Under the pieces are notes generated by a model. It did not search any database. It had not been told where the DNA came from and saw only the letters and a list, made by a program, of their open reading frames with translations. Both the position numbers and the translations under genes were made by a program. This document shows, piece after piece, positions 13,633-54,749 of a DNA stretch of 64,000 nt (the first letter of the stretch is position 1; every line of letters starts with the position of its first letter). The stretch comes from Campylobacterales bacterium (GTDB lineage Bacteria > Campylobacterota > Campylobacteria > Campylobacterales > JALSKU01): positions 8,635 through 72,634 of the forward strand of contig JALUBK010000038.1 in assembly GCA_027044945.1 (NCBI GenBank), given 5' to 3'.

Positions 13633-16131
13633 CTATTTAAGACGAAATTTTTGAATTAATTCTTCTTTTCTTATAGGCTTGGAAAAGATATAACCTTGCC
13701 CCAAATCAACTCCCAAGTGGGTAAGTAATTTCTCTTGTTCTTTAGTTTCAATTCCCTCTGCTACCGTTATATAATTAAAATCTTTAGATAAAATAACTAT
13801 AGCTTTTATAATTTTTACTTTATCATTGTCCTCTGTTATATCATCAACAAATGTTTTATCTATTTTCAACACATCTATAGGAAAATCTTTCAAGTATGAC
13901 ATAGATGAATATCCTGTTCCAAAATCATCTAAAACAATTTCATATCCAAATTTTTTCATTTTATCTAACATTTTTTTTGTTTTTTCTATATTTTGCATTA
14001 TATAAGTTTCTGTAATCTCAAGACCTATGTATTTTATATCTATTTTGGTTTCTTCAATTATTTTTTTAAATTCATCAAAAAGAAGAGTATTATCAAATTG
14101 CCTTGCTGATACATTTATTGTCACATGCTCCAAAGTTGGAATATGATTTTTTAATTCTTTAAAATCTTTGCAAGATTGTCTAAAAGTATATCTACCTATA
14201 TCAAATATGATATCCATTTTCTCAGCAATTGGTATAAATTCTGCAGGAGACACAACACCAAGTATTTTATTTTTCCATCTTATTAAACACTCTAAAGAAA
14301 GAATTTCTTTAGTTTTCAAATCATATTTTGGTTGATATACGATATACATTTCATTATTATAAAGAGCATTTTTTAATTCTTGTTCTATTTCTATTTTTCT
14401 TGAAAATGTATCCAAAAACTCTTTATTGAAAAAAACAAATCTGTTTTTACCCAATAATTTTGCATTATATGCCGCAATATCAACATTTTTCAATAATCGC
14501 TCAGGAGTATCTCCATCTTTTGGATATTGAACTATCCCTATGCTAACAGTTATTTGAATATTTTTAGAATTAATTTCTATAGGTTTTGAAACTAATTGCA
14601 TAATTCTTTTGACAATTATTTCAGTATGCAAAATTTTATCATTTTCATCTACAATAATAGCAAATTCATCTCCGCCTACTCTAAAGACAATATCTCTTGA
14701 GTCTAAATTATTTCTAATTCTTTGGGCAGTTGTTTTTAAAATCAAATCACCTATCTCATGACCTAATGAATCATTAATAAATTTAAAATTATCTATATCT
14801 AAAAACAAAATAGATATTTTAGTTCCAAATTTTTGAGCCCTTTGAATGTAATCTTTTATCCCATCTTCAAAACATTTTCTGTTTCTAAGATTTGTTAATT
14901 TATCATGATTTATTAAAAAATTTATCTTTTTCTCTTGTTTTATATATTCTGTAATATTTAATTTTATTGCTAAATAACCTGAAAGCTCTTTTTCGTTAAA
15001 CAAAGGAATAATGGAGACTTTTTCATAATAGATAGTTCCATCTTTTTTCTTGTTTATAAATTCGCCTGACCATTTTTGATAATTATATAACTTTTTATTC
15101 ATATCATCATAATATTTTTGTGGAGTTAGCCCTGATTTTAATATTCTTGGATTTTGGCCTATGACTTCTTTTCGAGTATAGGCTGTATCTTTTACAAAAG
15201 CATCATTAACATAAGTTATTATTCTATTTTTATCGGTAATAATAATGATATTATCACTATTTTCAACTGCACAAACAAACGAAAAAAACTTTTTATTCAT
15301 CTTTATCAATATAATAAAAATGAAAATATTTGCAAAAAGTAAAACCACAGAAACAATAAAAAACAATCCTGCAATTATTATTATTTCTTTTAAGTTTTTA
15401 TGATATATTTTTGTAATATTTTGATTTAAAAGATTTAACGATTGGGTAATATTAAAATGCTTCAATTTCGAATCAACAGAATTAATAAATAAAATATTTT
15501 TTGATAAAGATTTTACATTTAAAAACATAAGCATTAAATTATTTGTATCATATTTTAAATATATATTATGAACATATTTTAAATCATTATCAATTCTATC
15601 TTTTGGCAAGTCAATTTTATTATATAAATTAACTATATCAAAAGATATATCAATAAGCTTTGTTTTTTCTTTTTGAGTAATATGATTGTTTGCATTAATC
15701 TTTTTTAATAAAATAAATACATAGGATAAAGAACTCATCAAAGTTGCATTATGAGTTTTAAATTCTTCAACCAATCTTTCTTTTTCGCTAATTTTTTTAT
15801 CGATATTGTTTATCTCTTGCTTTAAATTATTTCCAAATTTATGATAAAATTTTTGTTTATTCAGACATTGTATATTTGTTTTTAATTGTTCAATATCATC
15901 ATCTACATTGTCATAATTTATAAACACGATTCTTCCAAGAAGAAAATTATTGATTTTGGCATTATAGACTTTTGTATTAGCAATTATATGAGTGTAATAG
16001 CCATAATTTTTTATTGTTAAACTAATCTTAAATAGTAGAAAAATTAAAAATAGTAGAAAAATTAAAAATAAACTTCCTAATATAAAAATTTTTTTAGTTT
16101 TAATTGTTTTAAAATTTGAACTATTGAACAT
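13633..16131 (-). CDS. Membrane-bound sensory PAS-GGDEF-EAL protein (putative c-di-GMP cyclase/phosphodiesterase) with a periplasmic N-terminal domain of about 220 aa
   Basis: 832 aa. TM1 spans about residues 14-37 and TM2 about 255-285. PAS block IIITDKNRIITYVNDAF. Intact GGDEF (RVGGDEFAI). EAL-domain motifs are ECLIRW, DDFGTGYSS, KIDKTFV, AEGIET..Q and GQGY.FSKP. Confidence 0.85.
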   Translation of the reverse strand: MFNSSNFKTIKTKKIFILGSLFLIFLLFLIFLLFKISLTIKNYGYYTHIIANTKVYNAKINNFLLGRIVFINYDNVDDDIEQLKTNIQCLNKQKFYHKFGNNLKQEINNIDKKISEKERLVEEFKTHNATLMSSLSYVFILLKKINANNHITQKEKTKLIDISFDIVNLYNKIDLPKDRIDNDLKYVHNIYLKYDTNNLMLMFLNVKSLSKNILFINSVDSKLKHFNITQSLNLLNQNITKIYHKNLKEIIIIAGLFFIVSVVLLFANIFIFIILIKMNKKFFSFVCAVENSDNIIIITDKNRIITYVNDAFVKDTAYTRKEVIGQNPRILKSGLTPQKYYDDMNKKLYNYQKWSGEFINKKKDGTIYYEKVSIIPLFNEKELSGYLAIKLNITEYIKQEKKINFLINHDKLTNLRNRKCFEDGIKDYIQRAQKFGTKISILFLDIDNFKFINDSLGHEIGDLILKTTAQRIRNNLDSRDIVFRVGGDEFAIIVDENDKILHTEIIVKRIMQLVSKPIEINSKNIQITVSIGIVQYPKDGDTPERLLKNVDIAAYNAKLLGKNRFVFFNKEFLDTFSRKIEIEQELKNALYNNEMYIVYQPKYDLKTKEILSLECLIRWKNKILGVVSPAEFIPIAEKMDIIFDIGRYTFRQSCKDFKELKNHIPTLEHVTINVSARQFDNTLLFDEFKKIIEETKIDIKYIGLEITETYIMQNIEKTKKMLDKMKKFGYEIVLDDFGTGYSSMSYLKDFPIDVLKIDKTFVDDITEDNDKVKIIKAIVILSKDFNYITVAEGIETKEQEKLLTHLGVDLGQGYIFSKPIRKEELIQKFRLK
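16033..16068. repeat. Perfect 18-bp tandem duplication (tagtagaaaaattaaaaa x2)
   Basis: Read directly. It encodes the duplicated FLIFLL in TM1 of the GGDEF-EAL protein (LFLIFLLFLIFLLF). Confidence 0.95.
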
Positions 16132-21843: not shown

Positions 21844-22356
21844 TTAAAATGGAGGACCTTTTAACAAAATATTTGTTATTTTAGATGCTTCTTGTGGAGG
21901 CATTTTTGCCATTATTTTTGATATTTTATTTGCTTCAAGATTAAAAAGTATTTTTGCAGCTTCGTTTGCTTTCATTGAAGAGAGTATTTGTGCAGCAGCA
22001 GAAGCTCTCATTTTTGAATAAGTCTCACTAATTTTATCATCTTTAGCTTTTTTAATAGCCTTTAGTAATTCTTTGTTTTCTTGAAGCATATTTTTAATAT
22101 TTGTTTCTTTTTGCTTAATTTGTATCAATGTAGCATTTATTTCTTTTTCTTTTTTTTCAAGCACTATTTTTTTCTTATCAAGAAGTGCATTCGTTGCAGC
22201 TCTTAAAGCATCATAAGCCTCTCTTGCATTATCTATTTGTTCTATTTTTTGTTCTAATTCACCTTTTCTTTGGTTGAAAATTTGATTACATTCATAAGTT
22301 TGATCAGCCGCAAATAATGTCTTTAAACAAAATAAAAAAATAATTATTTTTTTCAT
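21844..22356 (-). CDS. Secreted coiled-coil protein with a MgtE_N / MotE-like domain (Cj1496c-like)
   Basis: 170 aa with signal peptide MKKIIIFLFCLKTLFA and a coiled-coil middle. The C-terminal region SAAAQILSSMKANEAAKILFNLEANKISKIMAKMPPQEASKIT resembles the MgtE N-terminal / FlbB / MotE repeat. Its start overlaps the upstream gene's stop by 4 nt. Confidence 0.5.
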   Translation of the reverse strand: MKKIIIFLFCLKTLFAADQTYECNQIFNQRKGELEQKIEQIDNAREAYDALRAATNALLDKKKIVLEKKEKEINATLIQIKQKETNIKNMLQENKELLKAIKKAKDDKISETYSKMRASAAAQILSSMKANEAAKILFNLEANKISKIMAKMPPQEASKITNILLKGPPF

Positions 22357-22865
22357 GATATTTTCTCTAATAATTTTAATAATCCATTTATAAGATCTAT
22401 CGGCTCAGGAGGACAACCTTTGATCCATAAATCAACTTTTACATCACTCATGATTCCATCTTTTATAGCATAAGAATCCTTAAAAACTCCTCCATCCATT
22501 GTGCAATCTCCGACTGCTATAACATATTTTGGATTTGGAGTTAATTCGTATGCATTATGCAAAGGATACTCCATGGCTTTAGTCAAAGGACCTGTTATCA
22601 TCAAAGCATCTGCAAATTTTGGAGAAGGCACAAAAGAAATTCCAAATCTTTCAAGATTATAATACGGATTTGAAAGAGCATTTATTTCTACTTCACAAGC
22701 ATTACAACTTCCTGTGTCAATTTCTCTTATAAAAAAACTTCTCTTAAAACTTTTATTTATTGAATCTTTTAATTTTTTTCCTAAAATTTCTATATTTTCA
22801 TTTGTAAATTCCAAATCTTCAGTCAAAATTTTATTTTTAAATCTTATTTTTGCTATATCTATCAT
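22353..22865 (-). CDS. NuoB / HycG / HyfI-like small subunit, [4Fe-4S] ligands retained
   Basis: 170 aa. Four cluster cysteines are in canonical contexts: TGSCNACEVE (C54, C57), GDCT (C121), GCPP (C151). GAGGAG Shine-Dalgarno 5 nt upstream. Confidence 0.85.
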   Translation of the reverse strand: MIDIAKIRFKNKILTEDLEFTNENIEILGKKLKDSINKSFKRSFFIREIDTGSCNACEVEINALSNPYYNLERFGISFVPSPKFADALMITGPLTKAMEYPLHNAYELTPNPKYVIAVGDCTMDGGVFKDSYAIKDGIMSDVKVDLWIKGCPPEPIDLINGLLKLLEKIS

Positions 22866-22888
22866 TTTAGCTCCTCAACTCTATTATT

Positions 22889-24409
22889 CTAAAGGTCATT
22901 GCCCGCATAACTCAAACTTAAACTTTTATTAACAAGCGGAAAATCACCTATAACATCACCTAAAACTGCAAATTGTATACTTTGCCAATTCATAAAAGAT
23001 GGATCTCTTGGCTTAAATCTAACAATTTTTTTATCTTTTATTTTAACATAAATAGATATATTACCTCTACTGCTTTCACTGTATCCAAAAGTTTCCCCAT
23101 CTTTAATCTCTCCAACTACTCTAAGCTCTGGATTTTTAATTTGTGAAAGATAATCAAAACAAACATTTAAAATATAAAAGCTATTTTTTATATCGGAAAT
23201 TTTTACTTTTATTCTATCATATACATCTCCCTCTTTTTGAACCATTGAATTAAAATCTATATTATCATAAATTAAATATGGATGTTCTTTTCTAAAATCG
23301 CTTTTTCTCCCACTCCCTCTTGCAGTAAAACCAACACAAGAAAGTTCTTTTATTGTATCTTTTTTTATTCTTCCTGTTGTTTCGAGTCTTTCCAAAATAG
23401 AAGCTGATTTGTGCAAAATTTCTACCCATTTGTCAAATTTTTTTTCAATTTTCGATAAAAGTTTTAAACAATTTTTTGTATCAACTATAATATTTTTACC
23501 AACACCGCCAATAACAATAAAATCTTTAAAAAATCTATTTCCGCTTAATTTTTTAATAATTCTCATGATTTCTTCTTTTAAGGCTGAAATACCAGCAGAG
23601 CCAAAACTATATCCCGCATCTTGAAAAATTCCAGATACATCAGAAAGCAAACAAGAAATTCTTTCAAATTCAGCACCAATTACTCGTAAATATTTAGCTG
23701 ATTTTGAAACTTTTATATTTGATATTTTTTCAACTGCCATAGCATATGCAAGAGAATAAGAAAGTGCATTATCTCCAGAAATTCTTTCGCTTATTTTTAA
23801 AACTTCATCTATGCTTTTGCCAACACATAATTTTTCTATCCCTCTGTGAGTATAAAAATGTCTAATTTCTAATTGTAAAATAGGCTCTCCGGACATTCCA
23901 AATCTAAAATGACCCGGTTCAATAACACCTGCATGAATTGGACCAACCAAAACAGTATAAACCCCTTCACTTGTTATATCTTTTGTTTTGTATTCTTTAT
24001 AAGTTTTTGGAACTTCATCAATAGAATTTTTAAAAGGGTGAAAATTTTCTGGATACACTTCACTATGCAAGCATAAACTTCTAAGATCAGGATGGTTTAA
24101 AGGTTTATATCCAAAAAGATCATATATTTCTCTTTCAAACCAATTAAGAGCTGGTATTTTTGATGCTAAACTTTCGAAAGAATTATCCTTAACCTCTTGT
24201 TCTAAAAGAAAAAAATAATCCTTTTCTTTATAAGCATATAAATATTTTATTTTGTTTCCATCTGCAAAAGCATTACATAAATCACAATCCAAATCATTGA
24301 AAATAAATAAAGATAAAGATGACAAATTATCTGTTTTTATTTTTATAAGATTATCAACCTCAACAAAATCTTTGATATAATAATCAACTCTTTTAAATAA
24401 ATTTTTCAT
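22889..24409 (-). CDS. Fused NuoC-NuoD / HycE / HyfG-like large subunit lacking the NiFe-binding cysteines
   Basis: 506 aa. NuoC-like block NWFEREIYDLFGY.P.NHPD. Large-subunit block GPIHAGVIEPGHFRF...LEIRHFYTHRGIEKL. The L1 position reads ERISGDNALSYS (expected R.CG.C...H). The C-terminus reads SLSLSYAGNDL (expected DPC..C..R/H). No Cys occurs in the last 89 residues. Confidence 0.85.
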   Translation of the reverse strand: MKNLFKRVDYYIKDFVEVDNLIKIKTDNLSSLSLFIFNDLDCDLCNAFADGNKIKYLYAYKEKDYFFLLEQEVKDNSFESLASKIPALNWFEREIYDLFGYKPLNHPDLRSLCLHSEVYPENFHPFKNSIDEVPKTYKEYKTKDITSEGVYTVLVGPIHAGVIEPGHFRFGMSGEPILQLEIRHFYTHRGIEKLCVGKSIDEVLKISERISGDNALSYSLAYAMAVEKISNIKVSKSAKYLRVIGAEFERISCLLSDVSGIFQDAGYSFGSAGISALKEEIMRIIKKLSGNRFFKDFIVIGGVGKNIIVDTKNCLKLLSKIEKKFDKWVEILHKSASILERLETTGRIKKDTIKELSCVGFTARGSGRKSDFRKEHPYLIYDNIDFNSMVQKEGDVYDRIKVKISDIKNSFYILNVCFDYLSQIKNPELRVVGEIKDGETFGYSESSRGNISIYVKIKDKKIVRFKPRDPSFMNWQSIQFAVLGDVIGDFPLVNKSLSLSYAGNDL

Positions 24410-25848
24410 CCCGAGATAACCTCCACTGCTTTTTGCATAAGATTTTGCATACCATCTGGTATATTAATACCAAGATATAGCATAACTGCCACAAGAAGAA
24501 ACATTGACCAATCCATCCATTCGCTACTTTTTTTGCTTTCGGTAGTATCACCCATAAGCATATAAGAAAAAAGATATACAAAACCACCAAAAATAACAAC
24601 TAAACAAAATAATATAAAAAATATCTCCCAATACAAATGTGCTTTAAAAGCTGAAACAATAATCAAAAATTCACTGGCAAACATATTAAAAGGAGGCATT
24701 CCGGTAATCCCCAATACTCCTATGCTCACCAATAATGCAGTCAATGGCATACTTTTATAAAGTCCTCTTATAGAAAAAATATCCCTTGTATGAAAATTAA
24801 CCAATATCTCTCCAACACTTGAAAACATCAATCCCTTAGCAAAGGCATGATTTATCAAATGAAATAAACCAGCAAAAGCACCTATTTTATTGCCTATACC
24901 AAAAGCAAATGCTATAAGGCCCATGTGTTCCATTGAAGAATAAGCTAATAATCGTTTATAATCTTTTTGCCGAACAATAGAAATCGTCGCTATAAAGACT
25001 GTAAGCAATCCTATAAAAAGAAGTAACGAAGAAGCAAAATGCTCTATTGAAGTCCTATCTATCACCGCTTTTAACCTTAAGATAACATAAAATGCAGAAC
25101 TAAGCAAAACTCCACTCATCAAAGCACTAGTAGGGGTAGGAGACTGAGAGTGAGCGTTTGGTAACCATGAATGCATAGGAGCAAGTCCTGCTTTGGTTCC
25201 AAAACCAACCAAAAAAAGAACAAAAGCCATTTTTAAAAGAGATGGATTAAGTTGTTTGCCTATTGCTATAATATTTGTCCAATCAAGAGCAGACATACCT
25301 TCTCCTAATATATGATATGTCGCAAAATAAAGTGTAATAACACCAAAAAGACCAATAGCTATACCAAATGAACAAATGATAATATATTGCCAAGAAGCTT
25401 TTATGGCATCTTTCGTATTATAAAAACCTATCAAAAATGTTGTAGATAGTGTTGTGCCTTCTATGGCTATCCAAACTATGCCAAAATTATTAGATAATAA
25501 AACTAAACTCATGCAAAATACAAAAAGATTCATCCAAAAATAAAATACTTTGATTTTTTCCTCTTTTAAACCATTTTCAAACTCTTTTTTCATGTAACCT
25601 ACTGAATATACAGATACACAAAAAAATAAAAATAAAAGTGCAGTCAATATAAGAGCATTTAACGAATCCAAAAATAAAAAATGATTTAATTCAAAAATAA
25701 TATCTTTATGCAAAACTGTTTTCATTTTATCAAATGATATAAAAAAGAGTATAAGTGATATAAAAATTTGTGTTATATATGTAATTTTTAAAGAAATAAA
25801 TCTTGTAATCACAGCCCAAACAAGTTCAATAATTAATATGCTTAACAC
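24406..25848 (-). CDS. HyfF / NuoM-N-like antiporter-type membrane subunit
   Basis: Polytopic protein with the Mrp/NuoMN signature region (GTKAGLAPMHSWLPNAHSQSPTP.SALMSG). Start re-assigned to the GTG at 25848, preceded by AAGGAG with a 7-nt spacer. The track ATG at 25884 would overlap the upstream gene by 32 nt. Confidence 0.85.
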   Translation of the reverse strand: MLSILIIELVWAVITRFISLKITYITQIFISLILFFISFDKMKTVLHKDIIFELNHFLFLDSLNALILTALLFLFFCVSVYSVGYMKKEFENGLKEEKIKVFYFWMNLFVFCMSLVLLSNNFGIVWIAIEGTTLSTTFLIGFYNTKDAIKASWQYIIICSFGIAIGLFGVITLYFATYHILGEGMSALDWTNIIAIGKQLNPSLLKMAFVLFLVGFGTKAGLAPMHSWLPNAHSQSPTPTSALMSGVLLSSAFYVILRLKAVIDRTSIEHFASSLLLFIGLLTVFIATISIVRQKDYKRLLAYSSMEHMGLIAFAFGIGNKIGAFAGLFHLINHAFAKGLMFSSVGEILVNFHTRDIFSIRGLYKSMPLTALLVSIGVLGITGMPPFNMFASEFLIIVSAFKAHLYWEIFFILFCLVVIFGGFVYLFSYMLMGDTTESKKSSEWMDWSMFLLVAVMLYLGINIPDGMQNLMQKAVEVISG

Positions 25849-25852
25849 TATA

Positions 25853-26503
25853 TTACTCCTTAAAATTTGTAATACTATTTTCATCTATATCATCTTCATT
25901 TTGACTGATATGATGAATAATAATCGAAGCCATGGTAACTCCAACAACAACATCAAAGAAAATCCCTATTTCTACAACAAGTGGCATTCCATATGTAACA
26001 GAAGTAGCAACAAGCATAATGCCATTTTCTAAAGTTAAAAAACCAATTAATTGTGTTATAGGTTTTTTTCTTGAAACCATAATAAATGCACCTATAAAAA
26101 TAATCGATAATGAAATAGGAAATATTTGCTTTGATATAATTGTTCCACCAATATGAATATATCTTGTTAATAAAAATGAACTAATAATAATTACAGCTAT
26201 AATCATTAATGAATTTGTTATATTTATATAAGTTTTAATTTCTCTTTGTATATTCATTTCATCAATTGCTTTAAAAAGTGCATAAGGGATAATAATTCCC
26301 TTAATTACCAATGTCAAAAATGAACTCATATATAAATCAGCAGAACCGCTATATATAGCAGTGCCAAGTATAGCAAATGCAACAAAGAAAGATTGCAAGG
26401 CATATACTCTAACAGAAAAATACAATCTATCGCTTGTAATTTGTAAGATAGAAAGCATTAAAACAAAAGAACCTAAAAGCTCTATAAAATTAGAAAACAC
26501 CAA
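25853..26503 (-). CDS. HyfE-like small membrane subunit (NuoK-related)
   Basis: 216 aa, the same length as I recall for E. coli HyfE (unverified). Multi-TM protein. GTG start with a perfect AAGGAGG 5 nt upstream. Confidence 0.75.
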   Translation of the reverse strand: MVFSNFIELLGSFVLMLSILQITSDRLYFSVRVYALQSFFVAFAILGTAIYSGSADLYMSSFLTLVIKGIIIPYALFKAIDEMNIQREIKTYINITNSLMIIAVIIISSFLLTRYIHIGGTIISKQIFPISLSIIFIGAFIMVSRKKPITQLIGFLTLENGIMLVATSVTYGMPLVVEIGIFFDVVVGVTMASIIIHHISQNEDDIDENSITNFKE

Positions 26504-26510
26504 AACCTCC

Positions 26511-27446
26511 TTAAAGCCTGTAAATTATCATAGATATTAAAGACAATACAAAAGCAAACATCATAATATCTGAAATTCTAAAATATCTTAATTTTGCCAA
26601 TGTTAATTCGCCAATACTTATTATAATAGCAAGAGTTGACACTTTTAAAAAATATATAAAAATACCAAATAAAATTGCCCAAAAACTATTTGTTTGATAA
26701 AAGCCAAAAGGCATAAATATAGTAGAAAATAGAGTTAAAAAAATACCTGTTTTTACACAAGAACCTATTTCCAAAAGTGCCAAATTTCTACCAGATGCAT
26801 CTAATATCATCGCTTCATGAATCATTGTTAGCTCTAAATGTGTTTCAGGATTATCTATCGGAATTCTACCCGCTTCAGCTATTGTCACAAAATAAAGTGC
26901 TATAAGAGCCATGATAGAAGATACAGGATATTTTATAAATATATCTCCATGAATTTTATCAAAAATATTAGCAATATTACTAGAATCACTTTGAAGAGCA
27001 AAAGTAAAAATTACCATTATCAGTGTAGGCTCCGCCAAAGAGCCAACAAACATTTCTCTACTGCTTCCAAGTCCTCCAAAAGATGAACCTTGATCAAATC
27101 CATAAAGAGCTAAAAAAAATGTTCCTAATGCTAAAATATAAACTAAAGCTATAATATCCCCACTAAATCCAAGCAAAGTTTTATCGCTAAAAACGGAGAA
27201 AAACCCAGCTACTGTGATAGGAACTATTGCTACAATAAATGGTGCAATAATAGATATATAAGAAGCATCACTTGATAAAACAACTTCTTTTTGAAAAAGT
27301 TTATATATATCAAAATATGCTTGAAAAAAAGATGGCCCTTTTGCCCCTCTTAAAAAAGATTTTGTTTTATGCATAAGAGTAATCAAAAATGGGGACAATA
27401 AAACAATAACTAAAAATTGTATTAATGCAATAATAAAATTATTCAT
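26511..27446 (-). CDS. HyfC / HycD / NuoH-like membrane subunit
   Basis: 311 aa polytopic protein. NuoH-family-like loop GRIPID.PE...EL.MIHEAM and position after the HyfB-like gene. Confidence 0.8.
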   Translation of the reverse strand: MNNFIIALIQFLVIVLLSPFLITLMHKTKSFLRGAKGPSFFQAYFDIYKLFQKEVVLSSDASYISIIAPFIVAIVPITVAGFFSVFSDKTLLGFSGDIIALVYILALGTFFLALYGFDQGSSFGGLGSSREMFVGSLAEPTLIMVIFTFALQSDSSNIANIFDKIHGDIFIKYPVSSIMALIALYFVTIAEAGRIPIDNPETHLELTMIHEAMILDASGRNLALLEIGSCVKTGIFLTLFSTIFMPFGFYQTNSFWAILFGIFIYFLKVSTLAIIISIGELTLAKLRYFRISDIMMFAFVLSLISMIIYRL

Positions 27447-27447
27447 C

Positions 27448-29433
27448 TTAATTTCCTTTTATGCTATAAAATAATAAAGAAATAACAGCAATAAGTATAT
27501 ATAAAATATACATATGAGTTGAATTATTTTCAACTTTTTTATATATAAAATAACTGGTTTTCATAAAAGCTTTTGTTAATAAATCATATATTTTTTCTAC
27601 ACTATCACTTGAATGTGCCTTATACTCCAATTTTGGGAAAAAATATTTTTTCTTGTTTTCTACTTTATATACTTTTTCTTCTGGATTATAAAAAAATGCA
27701 AAAACTTTTCTTATCGGTTGGGAAAAACCACTGGCACTATATTGACTTCTTGGAGTAATATTTTTTTGCCCACAACCCCAAGTAGAACACATTCTTGTTT
27801 TTGTATTTGCAAATTTTTTGATAAAAAGATAAACAGTTGCTCCAAGAAAAAAAGATGCCAACAATAATCCAATAGGAGATATATGGCCAAATGAATAATT
27901 TGGTGTTGAAACAATAAATACATGAGAAGATGCATATTCTTGAATTGGAATATTAAACAAAAGATGAGTTATAGGAGAAACAAAATATATAACAATATTT
28001 GGGAAAAGTCCAAATATCGCACACATTAATGCCAAAAACCCCATACTATAAAGCATATATTTTCCAACTTCTTTGCTCTTGGCAGCACTCTTGCTTTTAC
28101 TTTTACCTAAGAAAGAAACACCTATAACTTTTACAAAACAAGCTGCTGCAAAAGCTCCTGTCAAAGCAAGCATAGAAGCAAACAATGGCACAAATACATG
28201 AATAATATTCAAATCAATTTTATTACTTAGCAATAAAGATTGATAAGTTAGCCATTCACTAACGAAACCATTAAATGGAGGAAGTGCTGATATGGAAATA
28301 GAGCCTATGATAAAAAATAATGAAGTCCAAGGCATCAACTTTATAAGTCCGCCATATTGTTCCATGTCTTTAGTATGAGTTCTAAGCAAAATTGAACCTG
28401 CCCCCATAAAAAGCAATCCTTTGAAAATTGCATGATTGTATGTATGGAAAAGTGCAGCCAAAAGAGCAAATGCAGCTAAAATCTTATAGTTATAAGAGTA
28501 AAAAAGCATACTACTTCCAAGCCCTAATAATATAATTCCGATATTTTCTATACTATGATAAGCAAGAAGTTTTTTTAAATCGTGCTGAGCTAAAGCATAC
28601 ATAACTCCAAATAAAGCCGATAATGAACCTAAAATCAAAACTATAAAACCATACCACCAAGGGATAGAATCAAAAAAGTATAAATAAAATCTAACAAACA
28701 TATAAATAGCTGTTTTTATCATCACTCCACTCATGAGCGCTGATACATTTGATGGGGCAACAGGATGTGCATGTGGCAACCAAACATGAAGAGGAAACAT
28801 GCCTGCTTTTGTTCCAAAACCAATAAGAACAAACAAAAAAACTAAAAATTTTGTAGTAGGATCTAAACTAACATGGCACCAATGGCTAAACTCAAATGAT
28901 CCTGTTTTTAAATACATAAGAACAAAAGCAGAAACAATAAAGGCAGTTCCAAGATGTGTCATAAATATATAAATAAATCCACCACTTCTGTTTTCATCCT
29001 TTTTATAATCGTAAATAACAAGAAAAAATGATAAAGTTGACATAAGCTCCCAAAATATTACAAAAGAAAAAGCATTTGCACTACTAACAACAAAAATCAA
29101 GGAAGCAATAAAAGATGTATATATGAAAGAAAAAAGTCTTTTATGATGATAATCTTCGTCAAAAATATAATTTAATGAGTAAATCGACACAGCAAAAGAA
29201 AGTGTTGAAATGATCATAACAAAAAATAAACAAAGTGCATCCAAGTTAAAAGAAAAATTTAAAAATGGAATATTAGAATGAAAAAAAGTGCCCGTTATTG
29301 TTTTGCCACTCATTAACAATATAACACTATAAATAAATAGTGTTAAACTACTAAAAACCTGAACGATCAAAGATAATTTAGGTTTTATAAAAAACAATAT
29401 TGGCAATATTGTTAATATTATGAAAAATGTCAT
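27448..29433 (-). CDS. HyfB / HycC / NuoL-like antiporter-type membrane subunit
   Basis: 661 aa. Signature GTKAGMFPLHVWLPHAHPVAPSNVSALMSGVMIK and LLAYHSIENIGIILLG. The ATG overlaps the stop of the upstream fliJ-like gene (ATGA), with AGGAG 7 nt upstream. Confidence 0.88.
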   Translation of the reverse strand: MTFFIILTILPILFFIKPKLSLIVQVFSSLTLFIYSVILLMSGKTITGTFFHSNIPFLNFSFNLDALCLFFVMIISTLSFAVSIYSLNYIFDEDYHHKRLFSFIYTSFIASLIFVVSSANAFSFVIFWELMSTLSFFLVIYDYKKDENRSGGFIYIFMTHLGTAFIVSAFVLMYLKTGSFEFSHWCHVSLDPTTKFLVFLFVLIGFGTKAGMFPLHVWLPHAHPVAPSNVSALMSGVMIKTAIYMFVRFYLYFFDSIPWWYGFIVLILGSLSALFGVMYALAQHDLKKLLAYHSIENIGIILLGLGSSMLFYSYNYKILAAFALLAALFHTYNHAIFKGLLFMGAGSILLRTHTKDMEQYGGLIKLMPWTSLFFIIGSISISALPPFNGFVSEWLTYQSLLLSNKIDLNIIHVFVPLFASMLALTGAFAAACFVKVIGVSFLGKSKSKSAAKSKEVGKYMLYSMGFLALMCAIFGLFPNIVIYFVSPITHLLFNIPIQEYASSHVFIVSTPNYSFGHISPIGLLLASFFLGATVYLFIKKFANTKTRMCSTWGCGQKNITPRSQYSASGFSQPIRKVFAFFYNPEEKVYKVENKKKYFFPKLEYKAHSSDSVEKIYDLLTKAFMKTSYFIYKKVENNSTHMYILYILIAVISLLFYSIKGN

Positions 29434-29849
29434 ATTTTTCTCCTACTAAAATTCATAACAGAAATTTCATCAATCATTTTTTGTTCCTCTTTTTTATCTT
29501 TTTCTATTTTTTCTTTAATAATCAAATCCTCGAGATATTTAACCTTCTCAAATTCAATTAATGCAGTTTTATAATCTTTTTGCAGTTTTGATAATTTTTC
29601 TTTTTTTTGTATAAGCAAAAGCTGTTTTTCTTTTTTTGAATGAATAAGTGTTTCGAAAGAATAATTGTAAGCCATTATAATAGAAAATTTTCCACTCTTT
29701 GGACTTTTTAAAGATTTTATATCGTTTATTATTTTTTCTATTTCAAATTCGTTTTTTTTTATTTCTAAATTCAAGATAGTTATAGTATTCTCTATTGTTT
29801 CAATTTTTTGTTTTTTGATTTTTAACAATTGAGAATACTTTGTTTTCAT
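29430..29849 (-). CDS. FliJ-like coiled-coil protein (HP0256 / Cj1497c-like, from memory)
   Basis: 139 aa, all-helical and Lys/Glu-rich. N-terminus is MKTKYSQLLKIKKQKIETIEN. It lies immediately downstream of purA, as I recall for H. pylori HP0255-HP0256. Confidence 0.45.
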   Translation of the reverse strand: MKTKYSQLLKIKKQKIETIENTITILNLEIKKNEFEIEKIINDIKSLKSPKSGKFSIIMAYNYSFETLIHSKKEKQLLLIQKKEKLSKLQKDYKTALIEFEKVKYLEDLIIKEKIEKDKKEEQKMIDEISVMNFSRRKI

Positions 29850-38220: not shown

Positions 38221-41200
38221 TTACCTTATATATTTCTCTAAAATTTCATCTATTTTTTGCTTATTGATAACTTTTCCTATTACCTCATCAGCTTCAGACA
38301 AGCTATCTTCTTCATTGTCGGCAAATTCCACAAGAATACTCCTTTGCCCTCTTTCTCGCTCCATTTTATCAACTTCTTCTATAATATCTTCTGTATCTAC
38401 AAACTCTATTGTTTCATCAAACATAATTATTTTATAATGATAAGCTTCCATATTGATTATAAATTCATCATAGTTGGTAACAAAATCAGATGTATAACCT
38501 TTTTCCAAAATAATATTATTCAAAATTTTAGTCTCTATCTTATTGTTTTTAAATATTAAAACATCTTTGGTCGCAACATCACTTTTGTTTTCTTCAAAAT
38601 CATTATAATCGAAATTACTCTCATATTTATCTTCTTCATCATTAGAAGCTATGTCATAAAAATTATCATATTCAAGTTGCTCTTCTTTTAACTCTTTGTT
38701 TTGATTAATATCAAAATCTAAAAACATCTTTAATACTTTTTCAATATCTGCTTTTCTTAAAGGCTTAGAAACATATTCATCTAACCCTTCTTTTAAAAAT
38801 GTTTCCCTATCTCCTGCAACAGCATTTGCGGTTAATGCAATAATTGGAGTATGAGGCAAATTATTTTGATTTTCATATCCGATAATAGCATGAGTCGCAT
38901 CAATACCATTCATAATAGGCATAGCTATATCCATAAATATTATATCATACTGATTTTTTCTATACATATCTAAAGCCTCTTGCCCATTATTAACTATTGT
39001 TACTTTAAATCCAAAATTATTCAATGTTTTTTCAATCAATTTTTGATTTATCGCATTGTCTTCTGCAACAAGAATATTAATATCAGTGTTTTTTGTTTTT
39101 GGCTTCTCTTTTTTTATTCTTTGTGTAAAAACTTCCTCTTTTAAAACCTCTTTTTGTTTCTCAACTGGCTTTTTTATTTCATTGGTTAAAAATTCTTTTT
39201 GCTCATTTTCCTTTTTTTCTTCTTCATGTTTATTTATAATATCAACATTTTTTTTCATATTTTCTATTTTACTTATAGTATTATCTTTTTTATATTCAAC
39301 GGACTCGTCATAACTATTTTTCTCATAAAATTTTTCTTCTAAAAATGTTTTTAAAATAAATTCAATATTGTCTAATTTAATAGGTTTTGTAACATATTCA
39401 TCAAAACCTTCATTCAAAAATCTTTCTCTATCTCCTTGCAGTGCATTTGCAGTTAGTGCAATAATTGGAGTATGTTTAAGTTTTCTGTCAAGTTCATAAT
39501 TCAAAATAGTTTTAAGAGCCCTGACTCCGTCCATGATAGGCATAGCAATATCCATAAAAATTAAATCAAATTTTCTATTTTGAAACTCTTCTACTGCTTC
39601 TTGCCCATTATTTGCAAGAACAATCTTTGCTCCAAATTTTTCAAGAGTTTTTTTGATAAGTTTTCTATTTATTTCATTATCTTCTGCTACCAAAATTTTA
39701 ATACCTTTTTCTTCTTTGACAAATTCTTTTGGTTTTATTTCGATCGTTTGTTTTTTGCTTTGATTATCATTTTCTTTTTCAAGCTCTTTTTTAAACTCCT
39801 CGATTTTTGGAAGAAACTCTTTTTGTTTTTCAAGAATATTATTTAATTTGGTAACATTTATTGGTTCATATAAAGGTTTTATAAGGTTAGAAGTATATTT
39901 ATCCACATCATTTTTCATTGATGATTTTAAAATTATAATTCCAGGAATTTGTAATTTTTTATATTTTTCTATATCTTCTTCTTTTATGAAATCAACATCA
40001 AGAATTAAAAAATTTATATTTTTTCTATAAATAAGCTTTTTTATCTCTTGTTCTGCATAAAAAAATTCTACACTACATCCAAAATATTTTAAATAATCAT
40101 GTGTATATTGTGCATGATTTTTTCTATTCATTTCACTTGACAATAAAGCACATTTATATTGGGAGAATTTATTTTTAGTGCTTTCTTCGTTTGACGGAGA
40201 TTCGTTAAATTTAAGAGTAAAGAAAAATTTTGTTCCTTCTCCTTCAACACTTTCTAAATCAAGTTTACCTCCCATCATAGCTATATATTTTGAAGATATT
40301 GTAAGTCCTAAACCTGTTCCACCATATTTTCTGGTAATTGTAGAATCAGCTTGAGAAAAAGCATTAAAAATTGTTTTAATCTTATCTTTAGAAACACCGA
40401 TGCCATTGTCATGAACAGAAAATCTAACTTTTGTTTTACCAAATTCATCAACTTCGCTAACTCTTTTAATTTCAACATCAATTTCTCCATCAATAGGAGT
40501 AAATTTAATAGCATTACTTAAAAGATTGACTAAAACTTCTTTTATTTTTGTTGGATCTCCACTTAAATAATTATTCAAACTAGGATCCATGTAAAAACAT
40601 AATTTAATATTTTTTTCTGCGGCTTTTGCACCAAAAACTTCTACTGCATGTTCAAATTCATCTATAGGGGAAAATAATATCTCTTCTATCTCGACCTTAT
40701 CGCTTTCTATTTTTGACAAATCCAAAATATTATTTATAATATCAAGAAGATTATCAGAACTTTTTTCTATAACATCAACAAACTCTTTTTCTTCATCGCT
40801 AAGATCTGAATTTTTTAGAAGTTCTGTAAAACCAATGATTCCATTTAATGGTGTTCTAATTTCATGAGACATGTTTGCCAAAAATATACTTTTTGCTTTA
40901 GTTGCCTCCATTGCATCTTGTCTGTCTTGTTGAATTTGATCTATCGCTATTTCGATAATTTTATACCCTTTTTCAACATCTTCAATTGTTTGAAAATCAA
41001 TTTTTTCATCTATATCTGCTAATTGACCTACTTTTGAAAATAATTTTTCAAGTTCTCTAATGCCACCTCTTATGTATCTATCAATAAAAAATCCAATAAT
41101 CAATAAAAAAATAACCAAAATCAAGATACCGACTATTATAATCAGTTGAGGTCTAATTTGATTTGCCAATAAACTTGCTGTATCTGAGCTAATTGCCGAA

Positions 41201-42066
41201 GAAATAAAATCTTCTGCTTGATTTAAAAGATTTATTTTTATATTCATCAACTTAAGCCATTTGGATAAACTAATATTATAATTACCTGTATTATCTCCAT
41301 TAATAATTTTAATTTTTGAGTTTATTATGGCTTTATATACATTTTTTGATCCTATATTGTGAAAAAGAACAAAAAGTCTATTATTAAGATCTTGATTCAT
41401 TATCTCTGTGTTTAATGTTGTCAAATCTGGCAAACTAAATATTTTCATCCATTTAGAAAATTCATTCTTGTTTAAAGGTTTTCTTTTTGTTAAAATATAA
41501 GATATATAACCTTTTTCTTTTGAGCTTTTTTCTATTTCTTTTAATAAATTAATTTTAAGTGCATTTTCTGAAAATATTCTAGGAGTTTGTTGAATATTTA
41601 AAATCTTCTTATATTCTTTATATATATAAAAATTTATTTTAGAATAATAATTAAAAAACATTTTATTAAAAGAAATTTGTTGTTGATCCACAGCTTTTCT
41701 TATAAAAAATATTTTTGATAAATATTGAAAAATTCTTTTGCTTCTTATGTCAATAGATCTGTTTTTATAATAATCATCAAATTTTGTAATCGCCTGATTT
41801 GTTTCTTCTCTTTGTGCAATCAAAGAACTTTTTCCAAGTTTTTCTTTGCTTCCCATATATACTGCACTAAAACTTCTTTCTTTCCCTAAATTTAATAATA
41901 AATTTTTTAGAACTTTATCAGATTTAAGATTGTTTTCTATTTTTATATTGTTTTGATATTGATCGTAAGTTTGATATGCAAAATACAAAGACAAAACAAG
42001 AAGCAAAGACAGTGGGAATAAACTTATAAGCTTTAAACTAGAGCCAGTATTTAATTTTAATTTCAT
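38221..42066 (-). CDS. Giant hybrid sensor histidine kinase: NIT-like periplasmic domain, TM, HisKA-HATPase, degenerate REC-like region, two tandem REC domains, C-terminal REC-like tail
   Basis: 1281 aa. NIT-like pattern: LLLNLGKERSFSAVYMGS...AQREETNQAI, with a second half ...SSKEKGYISYIL. TM at about residue 310. H-box FLANMSHEIRTPLNGI. G2 box GGTGLGLTIS. Two about 60%-identical REC domains (ILVAEDNEINRKL...FMDIAMPIMDG...ALTANA and ILVAEDNAINQKL...FMDIAMPIMNG...ALTANA). Confidence 0.85.
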   Translation of the reverse strand: MKLKLNTGSSLKLISLFPLSLLLVLSLYFAYQTYDQYQNNIKIENNLKSDKVLKNLLLNLGKERSFSAVYMGSKEKLGKSSLIAQREETNQAITKFDDYYKNRSIDIRSKRIFQYLSKIFFIRKAVDQQQISFNKMFFNYYSKINFYIYKEYKKILNIQQTPRIFSENALKINLLKEIEKSSKEKGYISYILTKRKPLNKNEFSKWMKIFSLPDLTTLNTEIMNQDLNNRLFVLFHNIGSKNVYKAIINSKIKIINGDNTGNYNISLSKWLKLMNIKINLLNQAEDFISSAISSDTASLLANQIRPQLIIIVGILILVIFLLIIGFFIDRYIRGGIRELEKLFSKVGQLADIDEKIDFQTIEDVEKGYKIIEIAIDQIQQDRQDAMEATKAKSIFLANMSHEIRTPLNGIIGFTELLKNSDLSDEEKEFVDVIEKSSDNLLDIINNILDLSKIESDKVEIEEILFSPIDEFEHAVEVFGAKAAEKNIKLCFYMDPSLNNYLSGDPTKIKEVLVNLLSNAIKFTPIDGEIDVEIKRVSEVDEFGKTKVRFSVHDNGIGVSKDKIKTIFNAFSQADSTITRKYGGTGLGLTISSKYIAMMGGKLDLESVEGEGTKFFFTLKFNESPSNEESTKNKFSQYKCALLSSEMNRKNHAQYTHDYLKYFGCSVEFFYAEQEIKKLIYRKNINFLILDVDFIKEEDIEKYKKLQIPGIIILKSSMKNDVDKYTSNLIKPLYEPINVTKLNNILEKQKEFLPKIEEFKKELEKENDNQSKKQTIEIKPKEFVKEEKGIKILVAEDNEINRKLIKKTLEKFGAKIVLANNGQEAVEEFQNRKFDLIFMDIAMPIMDGVRALKTILNYELDRKLKHTPIIALTANALQGDRERFLNEGFDEYVTKPIKLDNIEFILKTFLEEKFYEKNSYDESVEYKKDNTISKIENMKKNVDIINKHEEEKKENEQKEFLTNEIKKPVEKQKEVLKEEVFTQRIKKEKPKTKNTDINILVAEDNAINQKLIEKTLNNFGFKVTIVNNGQEALDMYRKNQYDIIFMDIAMPIMNGIDATHAIIGYENQNNLPHTPIIALTANAVAGDRETFLKEGLDEYVSKPLRKADIEKVLKMFLDFDINQNKELKEEQLEYDNFYDIASNDEEDKYESNFDYNDFEENKSDVATKDVLIFKNNKIETKILNNIILEKGYTSDFVTNYDEFIINMEAYHYKIIMFDETIEFVDTEDIIEEVDKMERERGQRSILVEFADNEEDSLSEADEVIGKVINKQKIDEILEKYIR

Positions 42067-51066: not shown

Positions 51067-52587
51067 ATGAATTTATTATTAGCAATGAACAGCAATGAAA
51101 TATCAGAACTTTTATCTTTGAAGAATGGAAAAACTTCTCTTTCAAAAGAAAAAGGAATACCTGTTAATATTCAATCTGAATTTAAAGATTTTTTAACTAA
51201 TTTATTAAGTGATACAAAAATTCAAACAGATGATAAAAACAAATTGCTTTCAAACGATAAAAATAATAATCAAGAAACAAAAGAAACAAAGCTAAATCTT
51301 TTAAATAACGACGATAAACAACCACCTGCTAAAAAAATAACATTAAATGAATTATTGAATTTCGTCTTGTATCTAAAATCAAATGGACTTAAAGGAAATT
51401 TTCCAACAGATACAAAAAAAATAGATACTATTTTAACTGATAAAAAAGCAATTTATGATTTTAAAAATATAAAAAATATAAAAGATTTATTTCAAGTAGC
51501 AAAAAAATATAATATAAAAATAGAAAAATTTGAATTTTTTAAAGAAGATGATAAAAAAATAATTTTGACAACAAAAAAAGATATAGAAAAAATAATTAAA
51601 AAAACCGATACCGTTTCTAATTTTCAAAAACAACCGTTAGAAAAAATAGACAAACAAATAAAAACAAAAAACACCAAATCTACAAGTGAAGAAATATTAA
51701 ATTTATCAAAAAACAAGCAAATTAAAAAAACCGATACCGTTTCTAATTTTCAAAAACAACCGTTAGAAAAAATATTGCAAAATATATCCAATAATCATAA
51801 AAAAGAGATAAAAGAACCCATAATTCAAAATGTTTCAAAAAATAAAATATCATTAAAACAATCTCAATCTGTGCAAACAAAAAATGATTTACCTATTATT
51901 AATAATACAAATGTATCGAAAAATATTTCTAGCATGAAGAAAAAAGACAAGCATGTTCTTACAAAAGAAAAAGGGATAAAAATTGCTTCAAATTTTGATA
52001 CAGATAAAAAAACTTTACAAGCCAAAGATATTATTACCCACAAAAAAACAAAAACGATACAAAAGCATCATTCTAAAAATCAAGCAAAAATTGAAAAAAA
52101 TATTCCACAAACAAATCCTACGGATGCTCCCGAAAAACATATATTTACTTCTGAAAACAATATAGGAAAAATAGATACAAATCATCAAAATATACAAATA
52201 AAACAAACTTTACAATATTTTGCAAACGATTTACATCAAGAAATTCAAAATTATAAGCCTCCTCTTAGCAGGATTAAAATGACATTAAATCCTAAAAATT
52301 TAGGAAATGTTGATGTAAGCATTGTAAGCAGAGGCAATAATTTACAAGTCAATATCAGCTCAAACAACAATACAATGGCAATTTTTACACAAAATCAAGC
52401 AGAATTTAAAAATTCTTTAGTAAATATGGGGTTCAGTAATTTGAACATGAATTTTAATTCAAACTCAAATAGCCATAATGAACAAAGACATAAATCAAAC
52501 AAGGAAAACAACAATTTTGAAGAAATTAATGACAACGACATGGAAAATCAACAAACAATCACACTTATTGTGCCAAAATATATATAA
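51067..52587 (+). CDS. fliK: Flagellar hook-length control protein FliK
   Basis: 506 aa. Low-complexity Lys/Asn-rich ruler region and C-terminal Flg_hook-type domain (IKMTLNPKNLGNVDVSIVSRGNNLQVNISS). Followed by flgD-flgE genes. Confidence 0.8.
   Translation: MNLLLAMNSNEISELLSLKNGKTSLSKEKGIPVNIQSEFKDFLTNLLSDTKIQTDDKNKLLSNDKNNNQETKETKLNLLNNDDKQPPAKKITLNELLNFVLYLKSNGLKGNFPTDTKKIDTILTDKKAIYDFKNIKNIKDLFQVAKKYNIKIEKFEFFKEDDKKIILTTKKDIEKIIKKTDTVSNFQKQPLEKIDKQIKTKNTKSTSEEILNLSKNKQIKKTDTVSNFQKQPLEKILQNISNNHKKEIKEPIIQNVSKNKISLKQSQSVQTKNDLPIINNTNVSKNISSMKKKDKHVLTKEKGIKIASNFDTDKKTLQAKDIITHKKTKTIQKHHSKNQAKIEKNIPQTNPTDAPEKHIFTSENNIGKIDTNHQNIQIKQTLQYFANDLHQEIQNYKPPLSRIKMTLNPKNLGNVDVSIVSRGNNLQVNISSNNNTMAIFTQNQAEFKNSLVNMGFSNLNMNFNSNSNSHNEQRHKSNKENNNFEEINDNDMENQQTITLIVPKYI
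51595..51648. repeat. Copy 1 of a perfect 54-bp direct repeat inside fliK
   Basis: attaaaaaaaccgataccgtttctaattttcaaaaacaaccgttagaaaaaata, identical to 51721-51774. Encodes IKKTDTVSNFQKQPLEKI. Confidence 0.95.
51721..51774. repeat. Copy 2 of the perfect 54-bp direct repeat inside fliK (126-nt period, in frame)
   Basis: Identical to 51595-51648 by direct reading. Confidence 0.95.
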
Positions 52588-52597
52588 AGGATAAACG

Positions 52598-53260
52598 ATG
52601 GTTTCAGATATGATAAATACAATCCCAACAACAACAAACAAATCTTCAATAGTAACAAATCCAAAAAGTATTCTTGGTAAAGATGATTTTATGAAACTTC
52701 TTTTGACAGAATTAAAATATCAAGATCCTACAAACCCAATGGATACTGAAAAAATACTTGCACAAACTTCACAACTTGCTACACTTGAATCAACAGACAA
52801 TACAAATAAAACTTTGGAAAAATTATCTTCTCAGCTTGAGGCAAGTAGTAATTTAGGAATGGTTTCGGCAATAGGAAAAATGGGTAGCCTCGGAACAGAT
52901 AGTATTTCTCTTTTAAAAGGTTCAAAACCAAATTTTGACTTATATTTTAAAAACGATATTCAAAGTGGAAAAGTTTATATTAAAGACATGAAAGGAAATA
53001 TTGTAAAAACATTTTTATTAAAACCACAAAAAGCTGGAGTTCTTTCATTTAGTTGGGATGGAACAAACAATAGCGGACAAAGGGTTTCTGCTGGCAGTTA
53101 TAGCATTAGTGCAAATTATATTGATGACAAAAATGATAATTTAACTACACAATATGGCACTTATCCTATTAGTTCCGTAAAATTTAATAACGGTAAAGCA
53201 CTTTTAAAACTTGGAAATAATTATTATTCTCTTAATCAAGTCAAAGAAATATATGAATAG
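52598..53260 (+). CDS. flgD: Flagellar hook capping / assembly protein FlgD
   Basis: 220 aa. LGKDDFMKLLLTELKYQDPTNPMD is the FlgD signature. C-terminal FLgD Ig/tudor-like region (F.WDG.NN.G......G.Y). Confidence 0.92.
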   Translation: MVSDMINTIPTTTNKSSIVTNPKSILGKDDFMKLLLTELKYQDPTNPMDTEKILAQTSQLATLESTDNTNKTLEKLSSQLEASSNLGMVSAIGKMGSLGTDSISLLKGSKPNFDLYFKNDIQSGKVYIKDMKGNIVKTFLLKPQKAGVLSFSWDGTNNSGQRVSAGSYSISANYIDDKNDNLTTQYGTYPISSVKFNNGKALLKLGNNYYSLNQVKEIYE

Positions 53261-53269
53261 GGTTGAAAA

Positions 53270-54730: not shown

Positions 54731-54732
54731 AA

Positions 54733-54749
54733 TGGAATGAAAATTGCTT
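54733..54749 (+). promoter_or_regulatory. Sigma54 (RpoN) promoter upstream of flgE
   Basis: TGGAAT-gaaaa-TTGCTT. GG at 54734-35 and GC at 54746-47, 44 nt before the flgE ATG. Nearly identical to the fliK promoter. Confidence 0.65.

Follow-up and report, generated by a model that had tools for sequence, protein, structure and literature searches.

A six-gene cassette with the hallmarks of an Ehr complex in an uncultured Campylobacterales lineage

Introduction

Complexes of the Ehr type (energy-converting or Ech-hydrogenase-related) are among the few widespread relatives of complex I without an assigned reaction. They are defined as group-4-like complexes in which the large subunit lacks the two CxxC NiFe motifs (PMC10284858, PMC10432482, PMC4758237). 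The name is traced to Coppi 2005 and Marreiros et al. 2013, as these are cited in PMC4758237. Ehr has been reported from Geobacter, Mycobacterium tuberculosis, nitrifiers, Methanoperedens and candidate phyla, and papers up to 2023-2026 give it no assigned function. Here, we describe a cassette of six genes that very probably encodes an Ehr complex. It lies at positions 22353-29433 of a 64,000-nucleotide (nt) stretch of DNA from a Campylobacterales bacterium (GenBank assembly GCA_027044945.1, contig JALUBK010000038.1, positions 8,635 to 72,634), hereafter called the window. We found no paper on Ehr in Campylobacterota, and the window adds a Campylobacterales example to the family.

The closest described system is the ehr cluster of Geobacter sulfurreducens (GSU0739-0745), for which the supplement of PMC7894505 lists ehrA-1 (NuoL-like, GSU0739), ehrB (NuoH-like), ehrC (HyfE-like), ehrD (HyfF-like), ehrL and ehrS (GSU0745). 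According to this published listing, the window agrees with the Geobacter cluster in both the six subunit types and their order. The large subunit of Geobacter Ehr also lacks the NiFe Cys, and the group is related to group 4 hydrogenases and complex I; the host considered here, by contrast, belongs to an uncultured Campylobacterales lineage. The Ehr of Margulisbacteria again comprises the six subunit types, with NuoI fused to NuoB (PMC6349859, supplementary note 4).

No Ehr structure occurs among the matches in the PDB. The closest solved relative of four subunits is the formate hydrogenlyase (FHL) of Escherichia coli (7z0s). When compared with all PDB chains by HMMER, EhrL matches HycE best (7z0s_E, 5e-50), while EhrS, EhrB and EhrA correspond to HycG (7z0s_G, 1e-33), HycD (7z0s_D, 9e-36) and HycC (7z0s_C, 5e-65), respectively. 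HycE and EhrL are both NuoC-NuoD fusions, and the HyfB-, HyfE- and HyfF-type membrane subunits of the window resemble those of Hyf (hydrogenase 4). Unlike FHL and Hyf, the cassette has no NiFe site, no HycF/HyfH-type 2x[4Fe-4S] subunit, no HycB/HyfA and no FdhF, and maturation genes are not found in the window. With the Q- and P-modules of complex I (NuoB, NuoCD, NuoH, NuoK and NuoL/M/N), Ehr shares the module architecture, a single N2-type cluster in the NuoB homologue, antiporter-like subunits with conserved Glu and Lys, and the NuoD context R-x-x-x-x-x-S-F-A-H (KISGDHSFAH in Ehr versus RMDYLHSFAH in Nqo4). It departs from complex I in a Gly at the position equivalent to Tyr87, a β1-β2 loop of hydrogenase length, a C-x-x-C small subunit and the absence of NuoI, NuoA, NuoJ and an N-module. 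Finally, the MBH and MBS (Mbx) complexes of Pyrococcus furiosus (6cfw, 6u8y) are Mrp-linked and of group 4 type, with matches to MbhL (6e-39), MbsL (3e-25) and MbsH (8e-42). They comprise 13-14 subunits, including a NuoI-type ferredoxin-accepting subunit and the small Mrp subunits, whereas Ehr has six and a different pocket signature. MBS provides a precedent for a hydrogenase-derived complex with a changed substrate.

Results and Discussion

Gene layout and identity

The large subunit encoded by the cassette is homologous to that of group 4 [NiFe]-hydrogenases with both CxxC motifs gone, and the operon combines NuoL/HyfB-, NuoH-, HyfE- and HyfF-like membrane subunits with a NuoCD-type large and a NuoB-type small subunit. 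An earlier note on this DNA, made from the sequence alone, had guessed at Ehr. The Cys-less large subunit upholds this guess, as do the gene content and order of Geobacter and Margulisbacteria Ehr. The cassette is a regular member of a family that was catalogued in 2005 and 2013 and has no assigned function, rather than a new variant.

All six open reading frames (ORFs) lie on the minus strand, with the boundaries and sizes that the earlier note had read from the ORF list of the window. The intergenic gaps, counted from the 22353 end upward, amount to 23, -4, 4, 7 and 1 nt, which confirms the tight packing noted before (gaps of at most 23 nt or ATGA overlaps). Pfam and NCBIfam profiles agree with the proposed subunit types, namely HyfB/NuoL, NuoH, HyfE, HyfF, a NuoC-NuoD fusion and NuoB. 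The note had also listed the absence of HycF/HyfH/NuoI-type, HyfA/FdhF-type, HycI and Hyp genes, which is borne out among the ORFs scanned. None of the 47 window ORFs searched with Pfam, a set without the short ORFs of the ribosomal-protein region, nor any of the public gene calls across the flgD-to-glutamate-dehydrogenase stretch, corresponds to a Hyp protein, a HycI-type endopeptidase, HyfA, FdhF or another formate dehydrogenase, or a 2x[4Fe-4S] protein. The negatives for maturation genes cover the window only, the source being a 77-kb metagenome scaffold (ENA ERZ23497056, REYS20-1_SAMN12239310 scaffold_45). The TypA protein of the window is 90% identical to that of an 'Epsilonproteobacteria bacterium' metagenome-assembled genome (MAG) and 81-83% to those of Sulfurospirillum and Campylobacter, which places the host as an uncultured member of Campylobacterales.

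Large subunit

EhrL (22889..24409, minus strand) is a fused NuoC-NuoD/HycE-like protein of 506 amino acids (aa), matched by PF00329 (2e-11) and PF00346 (7e-42). The Cys ligands of the L1 (RxCGxCxxxH) and L2 (DPCxxCxxH/R) motifs of group 4 [NiFe]-hydrogenases are not present. In the HMMER alignment, RVCGICGFAHS of HycE is aligned to RISGDNALSYS of EhrL and SLDPCYSC to SLSLSYAG, so that the four positions of the NiFe ligand Cys are occupied by Ser211, Asn214, Ser500 and Gly503. The former L1 motif reads ERISGDNALSYS (residues 208-219; 23753..23788, minus strand), and the former L2 motif together with the conserved C-terminal tail reads NKSLSLSYAGNDL (residues 494-506; 22892..22930, minus strand). 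No Cys follows Cys417, which leaves the final 89 residues Cys-free. The by-eye register of the earlier note, with Ser and Asn in place of the L1 Cys pair and a Cys-free C-terminus ending on SLSLSYAGNDL instead of L2, is therefore correct. Judged from its sequence, EhrL cannot hold a Ni-Fe centre. With all four ligand positions replaced, the prior claim that this is not a hydrogenase finds support, and we regard it as almost certain.

The AlphaFold2 (AF2) model of EhrL (pLDDT 83.6, pTM 0.86) has HycE as its best structural match (TM-score 0.85), followed by fused NuoCD chains. The model is confident except for residues 140-188 (pLDDT below 50). This segment holds GPIHAGVIEPGHFRF, the motif with the highest conservation in the family, and its folding probably depends on contact with the small and NuoH-like subunits. 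Across 31 aligned sequences, S211, G212, D213, N494, K495, S496, L499, S500, Y501 and G503 are invariant, and so is most of GPxHAGxIEPGHFRF. At the quinone site of NuoD, which the earlier note had singled out for comparison, Tyr87 of Nqo4 (a quinone ligand; Thermus thermophilus numbering) corresponds to Gly212 in the HMMER alignment to 2fug_4. The β1-β2 loop of EhrL is two residues longer than that of Nqo4 and of hydrogenase type (IEPGHF); it offers no residue matching His38, with the loop alignment being approximate.

Small subunit

EhrS (22353..22865, minus strand; 170 aa; PF01058, 4e-28) is a NuoB/HycG-type protein with one [4Fe-4S] site. It contains exactly four Cys (54, 57, 121 and 151), which align one-for-one with the Cys of the proximal [4Fe-4S] cluster in HycG and MbhJ. 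The observation that the small subunit keeps all four cluster Cys is hence confirmed. They are invariant in 14 family copies, drawn from Campylobacterota, Aquificota, an archaeal type and others. The protein carries C-N-A-C-E, i.e., the C-x-x-C arrangement of HycG and MbhJ, and not the tandem CC (CCxxE) of the complex I N2 motif. No Fer4 motif is found in EhrS.

Membrane subunits

Two of the membrane subunits are of antiporter type. EhrA (27448..29433, minus strand; 661 aa) is HyfB/NuoL-like (PF00361, 2.6e-55; NF005086 'hydrogenase 4 subunit B', 2e-200), and it is also similar to MrpA/MrpD (7qru_A, 2e-53; 6z16_A, 6e-47). It carries Glu in transmembrane helix (TM) 5, Lys in TM7, TM8 and TM11, and Glu in TM12. 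Nine of the ten relatives compared retain all five charged residues, and the tenth, L033 (loci and their large subunits are referred to by such numbers below), has Asn instead of the TM8 Lys. EhrD (24406..25848, minus strand) is HyfF-like (PF00361, 3e-56; NCBIfam 'hydrogenase 4 subunit F', 2e-133) and 480 aa long according to the public gene call, while an upstream ATG at 25884 would give 492 aa. It retains Glu in TM5 and TM12 as well as Lys in TM7 and TM11. Compared with Mrp-type systems, EhrA thus has the full charged set whereas EhrD is one Lys short, and no MrpB, MrpE, MrpF or MrpG genes occur in the cassette. Neither do homologues of NuoA, NuoJ or NuoI, as searched with Pfam and NCBIfam.

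EhrB (26511..27446, minus strand; 311 aa; PF00146, 5e-32) is NuoH/HyfC-like. Its loop RIPIDNPETHLELTMIHEAMIL is almost invariant across phyla, with RIPxDNPETHLELTMxHEAMIL as the family pattern. EhrC (25853..26503, minus strand; 216 aa) is HyfE-like; the match to NF008556 'hydrogenase 4 membrane subunit' (1.9e-24) spans its full length with a score below the curated cut-off, and this NuoK/MrpC-like type of subunit matches PF00420 only weakly (7e-4). The two membrane positions (LENG, VEIG) are acidic in all 15 family copies; each is Glu apart from a single copy with Asp.

Distribution and conservation of the family

All 120 best database homologues of EhrL lack the NiFe Cys. They carry ISGD[N/H] and the C-terminal NKSL[NS]LSY[AS]GND[LM], with the protein ending at the same residue. 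Among them are Campylobacterota MAGs (56-80% identity), Venenivibrio (Aquificota, 51%) and many Methanoperedens archaea (around 41%). A scan of genome contigs with a single protein returned only four true family loci, its peptide patterns being too specific; a profile-guided scan of metagenome contigs yielded at least 594 confirmed relatives.

To grasp the gene context of the family, all ORFs from 92 bacterial and archaeal loci with a family member were clustered, comprising 98 large and 82 small subunits. The core families are the large subunit (present in 90 loci), the antiporter-like subunits (76), the small subunit (74) and the NuoH/HyfE-like subunits (59). The gene order A-H-E-A-L-S dominates, and S comes first in a minority. 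Beyond the six core families, no partner gene is conserved in the 92 loci; the next most frequent genes encode generic two-component regulators and clade-specific housekeeping functions. More than half of the small subunits (n = 44 of 82) are shorter than 200 aa and free of Fer4 motifs, so the form without a connector is the common one, whereas around 15 are fused to two Fer4 motifs. Together with Geobacter and Margulisbacteria Ehr, this count gives no support to regarding the six-subunit version without a ferredoxin-like connector, which the earlier note had taken to be uncharacterised in this gene context, as unusual. Some clades have additions of their own: Methanoperedens-type loci contain an extra 112-aa 2x[4Fe-4S] gene between EhrL and EhrS as well as a Usp gene, and the L033 clade is flanked by formate-dehydrogenase-like and NuoE/F-like genes, flanks that have also been published for Ehr.

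The replacements at the former NiFe site follow a pattern. In the Cys-less members that can be aligned over both motifs, the first Cys is replaced with Ser (Ala in three), the third with Ser and the fourth with Gly. The position directly before the second Cys is Asp (Asn or Thr in a few), and the second Cys position itself varies (N/S/T/E/H/A/M). Cys-less members aligned over L1 read SGD, or else SGN, SGT or, in three cases, AGD, and the tail NKSxxLSY[SA]G is common to the Cys-less relatives at the C-terminus. Seven of the 98 large subunits (L058, L062, L065, L066, L069, L070 and L098) keep all four NiFe Cys (ERICGACS...NKSFELCYACIDR), and every one of them pairs with a small subunit fused to two Fer4 motifs. 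The seven are genuine hydrogenase sisters within the family. In a rough neighbour-joining tree without support values, they fall inside the Cys-less radiation. The NiFe site may consequently have been lost more than once, a question of single versus multiple loss on which this tree is not conclusive. Such close Cys-bearing sisters form natural comparison pairs for Cys-less Ehr members. These family-level results are more useful than the single Campylobacterales example: its host is uncultured and known only from a metagenome scaffold, and therefore the window opens no new route to the function of Ehr.

Several loci show further arrangements. Nested twin sets occur in Campylobacterota MAGs (L034:1-12545, L001, L002:88-12542 and L013), in which the orthologue of the window cassette is immediately preceded, on its upstream side, by a second, divergent set HyfB2-NuoH2-HyfE2-HyfF2-(DUF167)-large2. 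The second Ehr-like set is 36-38% identical and shows the motifs ISGNE and NKSCDLSYAGSDL; its small subunit (43-47%) is located directly downstream. The window holds only the inner six genes of this nested arrangement. In L055, L056:1284-11389 and L103, atpG-atpD-atpC (ATP synthase gamma, beta and epsilon) are found directly upstream of a cluster that starts with ehrS, which is a hint of a link to the ion gradient. Ppx/GppA phosphatase genes occur 5-10 kb from the cassette in at least three lineages (L002:15669-17138, L013, L029:83-1051 and L031:14520-20185), of which L031 also has a polyphosphate kinase; this may be coincidence.

Function and alternative explanations

Each of the six genes has a dN/dS (ratio of nonsynonymous to synonymous substitution rates) of 0.05-0.10 relative to L035, the closest relative, which originates from the same sampling project and shares 75-85% aa identity; dS is saturated, so the ratios are rough. 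All six genes are under strong purifying selection. Because of these low ratios and the retained charged residues, which serve coupling and ion transfer in complex I, MBH and FHL, the cassette is regarded as functional and not as a decayed hydrogenase. It is probably a working ion translocator. The previous description as a 'complex-I-like, probably ion-translocating module' gains support from the conserved charged residues and the coupling loop.

On the basis of the sequence features, we favour the explanation that Ehr is a working, redox-coupled, ion-translocating module that is not a hydrogenase, a reading that we consider reasonably likely. The membrane arm would resemble that of complex I and consist of EhrB (NuoH-like), EhrC (HyfE-like) and the Mrp-type antiporter-like EhrA and EhrD. 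On top of it, EhrL (NuoC-NuoD) and EhrS (with one [4Fe-4S] cluster) would form a two-protein cap. Movement of H+ or Na+ through EhrA, EhrD, EhrC and EhrB would be coupled to chemistry or binding in the pocket that EhrL, EhrS and EhrB form between them; this event either drives the ion movement or is driven by it. Electrons might be exchanged directly between the EhrS cluster and a soluble low-potential carrier (ferredoxin or flavodoxin); such direct entry at EhrS is proposed because no NuoI/HycF-type wire is encoded in the cassette. The acceptor would be some small molecule in the pocket, and the complex could run forward (pumping) or in reverse (gradient-driven reduction of the carrier). A redox event is preferred over mere binding because the cluster ligands are invariant, several clades have Fer4 or formate dehydrogenase (FDH)/NuoEF additions, and the ancestry is that of a hydrogenase. 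The Fer4 additions and fusions and the FDH and NuoE/F-like flanks of some clades are hints of redox coupling, and a coupling between FDH and Ehr has been proposed in the literature for some candidate phyla. Taken by itself, redox coupling remains a tentative call, about which we are nearly evenly divided.

A number of points weigh against this explanation. Every functional step proposed for Ehr is inferred. No NuoI/HycF-type subunit or conserved oxidoreductase neighbour is present, as in most bacterial relatives, which leaves electron entry unexplained, and the EhrS cluster might have a purely structural role. Given the Gly at the Tyr87 equivalent and the hydrogenase-like β1-β2 loop, quinone does not suggest itself as the acceptor. 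The variability of the second Cys position across the family makes the pocket unlike a simple new metal site. The TM8 Lys is absent from EhrD (SGVLLSSAFY), here as well as in every relative examined. Lastly, the likeness to Geobacter EhrL (GSU0743) is one of gene content and order, and not of direct sequence comparison.

A more specific version of the redox-coupled module is doubtful. It supposes that a new, non-NiFe site has been built from the old hydrogenase pocket (the invariant Ser-Gly-Asp, Ser...Gly and the fixed C-terminal carboxylate), which together with the lone [4Fe-4S] cluster would constitute a gradient-coupled ferredoxin or flavodoxin oxidoreductase. If true, Ehr could supply reduced low-potential carriers to autotrophs that use the reductive tricarboxylic acid (rTCA) cycle (Campylobacterota, Aquificota, Nitrospira) and need such carriers. 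The nested twin clusters of some Campylobacterota would then represent two specialised versions or a supercomplex.

The strongest competitor is an Mrp-like cation/proton antiporter that works independently of redox chemistry or is only gated by it. EhrL and EhrS would then serve as a structural plug or sensor, with a cluster that sees no electron turnover. Such a role would fit with the loss of both the NiFe site and the NuoI/HycF-type wire in most family members, the window included, and with the lack of a conserved redox partner in the 92 neighbourhoods. Likewise, the ion-transfer residues are kept in the antiporter-like subunits, and EhrA resembles MrpA/MrpD. Nonetheless, the cluster Cys are invariant, and no other parts of the complex are as conserved as the segments that form the pocket (in EhrL, GPxHAGxIEPGHFRF, SGD and the C-terminal tail, in addition to the NuoH-like loop), which goes beyond what a passive cap would need. 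Moreover, several clades keep or add Fer4 modules or adjoin FDH and NuoE/F-like genes. We therefore consider a redox-independent antiporter rather unlikely, albeit worth keeping in mind.

The cassette could also be the decaying, non-functional remnant of a formate hydrogenlyase or a Hyf-type hydrogenase. All NiFe ligands are gone, neither hyp nor hycI genes occur in the window, and Geobacter Ehr was termed 'already nonfunctional' in a 2026 paper (PMC13194489). In contrast, Geobacter proteomes show all Ehr subunits, with a higher abundance on formate than in hydrogen-containing conditions (PMC7894505). Here, the six ORFs are intact and have low dN/dS values, the replacement residues are themselves invariant from Campylobacterota to Aquificota and Methanoperedens, and the gene order is kept in dozens of lineages. 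The Cys replacements are thus a fixed signature of the family and no sign of decay, which makes a remnant highly improbable.

A third alternative takes its cue from the neighbouring genes. Upstream, a fliJ-like gene (29430..29849, minus strand; PF02050 FliJ, 8.8e-13) overlaps with its stop the start of ehrA (ATGA); downstream, the start of a gene with an MgtE_N domain (21844..22356, minus strand; PF03448, 1.2e-7) overlaps the stop of ehrS (ATGA). Both lie outside the complex. Co-expression with these two genes could turn the cassette into a flagellum-associated energy module that powers flagellar export or rotation, the more so as a fliK-flgD-flgE cluster is located 22 kb away. Synteny speaks against it. 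In L035, the cassette stands alone: the 350 nt upstream are non-coding, the gene downstream is convergent and unrelated, and neither fliJ nor the MgtE_N gene lies beside it. The flanks of the other Campylobacterota loci (L001, L002, L013 and L034) also differ from those of the window and lack this adjacency. The Nautiliales locus L003 has the trio MgtE_N-DUF507-carA near the cassette, but in convergent orientation; the ORFs preceding this trio are unrelated and show no similarity to fliJ. In the window, the MgtE_N gene is likewise followed by DUF507 and carA, and the stretch from hisZ to carA consists of tightly packed housekeeping genes on one strand. The family as a whole is found in archaea and bacteria with unrelated surroundings. 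A flagellar linkage is rejected on these grounds as scarcely credible, and the significance that the earlier note had attached to the gene context is not borne out. Since the adjacency to fliJ and MgtE_N is not conserved, we take the cassette to be an autonomous operon that was relocated, in this lineage specifically, into a densely packed housekeeping stretch. The six-gene unit moves and persists as an autonomous module without a conserved partner gene.

A true hydrogenase that binds its metal centre via non-Cys ligands is the least probable of all: the hydrogenase-like fold, the β1-β2 loop with its conserved Glu (IEPGHF) and the sister sequences with all four Cys inside the family would agree with it, but the fourth Cys position is Gly, the second is variable, no maturation genes are nearby in the loci inspected, and we know of no [NiFe] site without four Cys.

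A carbonic-anhydrase-like or CO2-hydrating role, by analogy with CupA of NDH-1 and with DAB, was considered as well; no supporting feature was found and this candidate was rejected.

Other features of the window

A scan for promoters and terminators between 18 and 36 kb gave sites that are no more numerous than in shuffled sequence and did not inform the limits of the operon. The flagellar hook cluster is encoded on the plus strand at 51067-56545 and comprises a FliK-like gene, flgD, an FlgE-like gene (486 aa) and flgE (583 aa). Furthermore, the window encodes two large sensory proteins (38221-42066 and 13633-16131). One, of 1281 aa, is a hybrid histidine kinase that combines two receiver domains with a NIT (nitrate/nitrite-sensing) domain; the other is an 832-aa DAHL-PAS-GGDEF-EAL protein, which adjoins a di-haem cytochrome c peroxidase.

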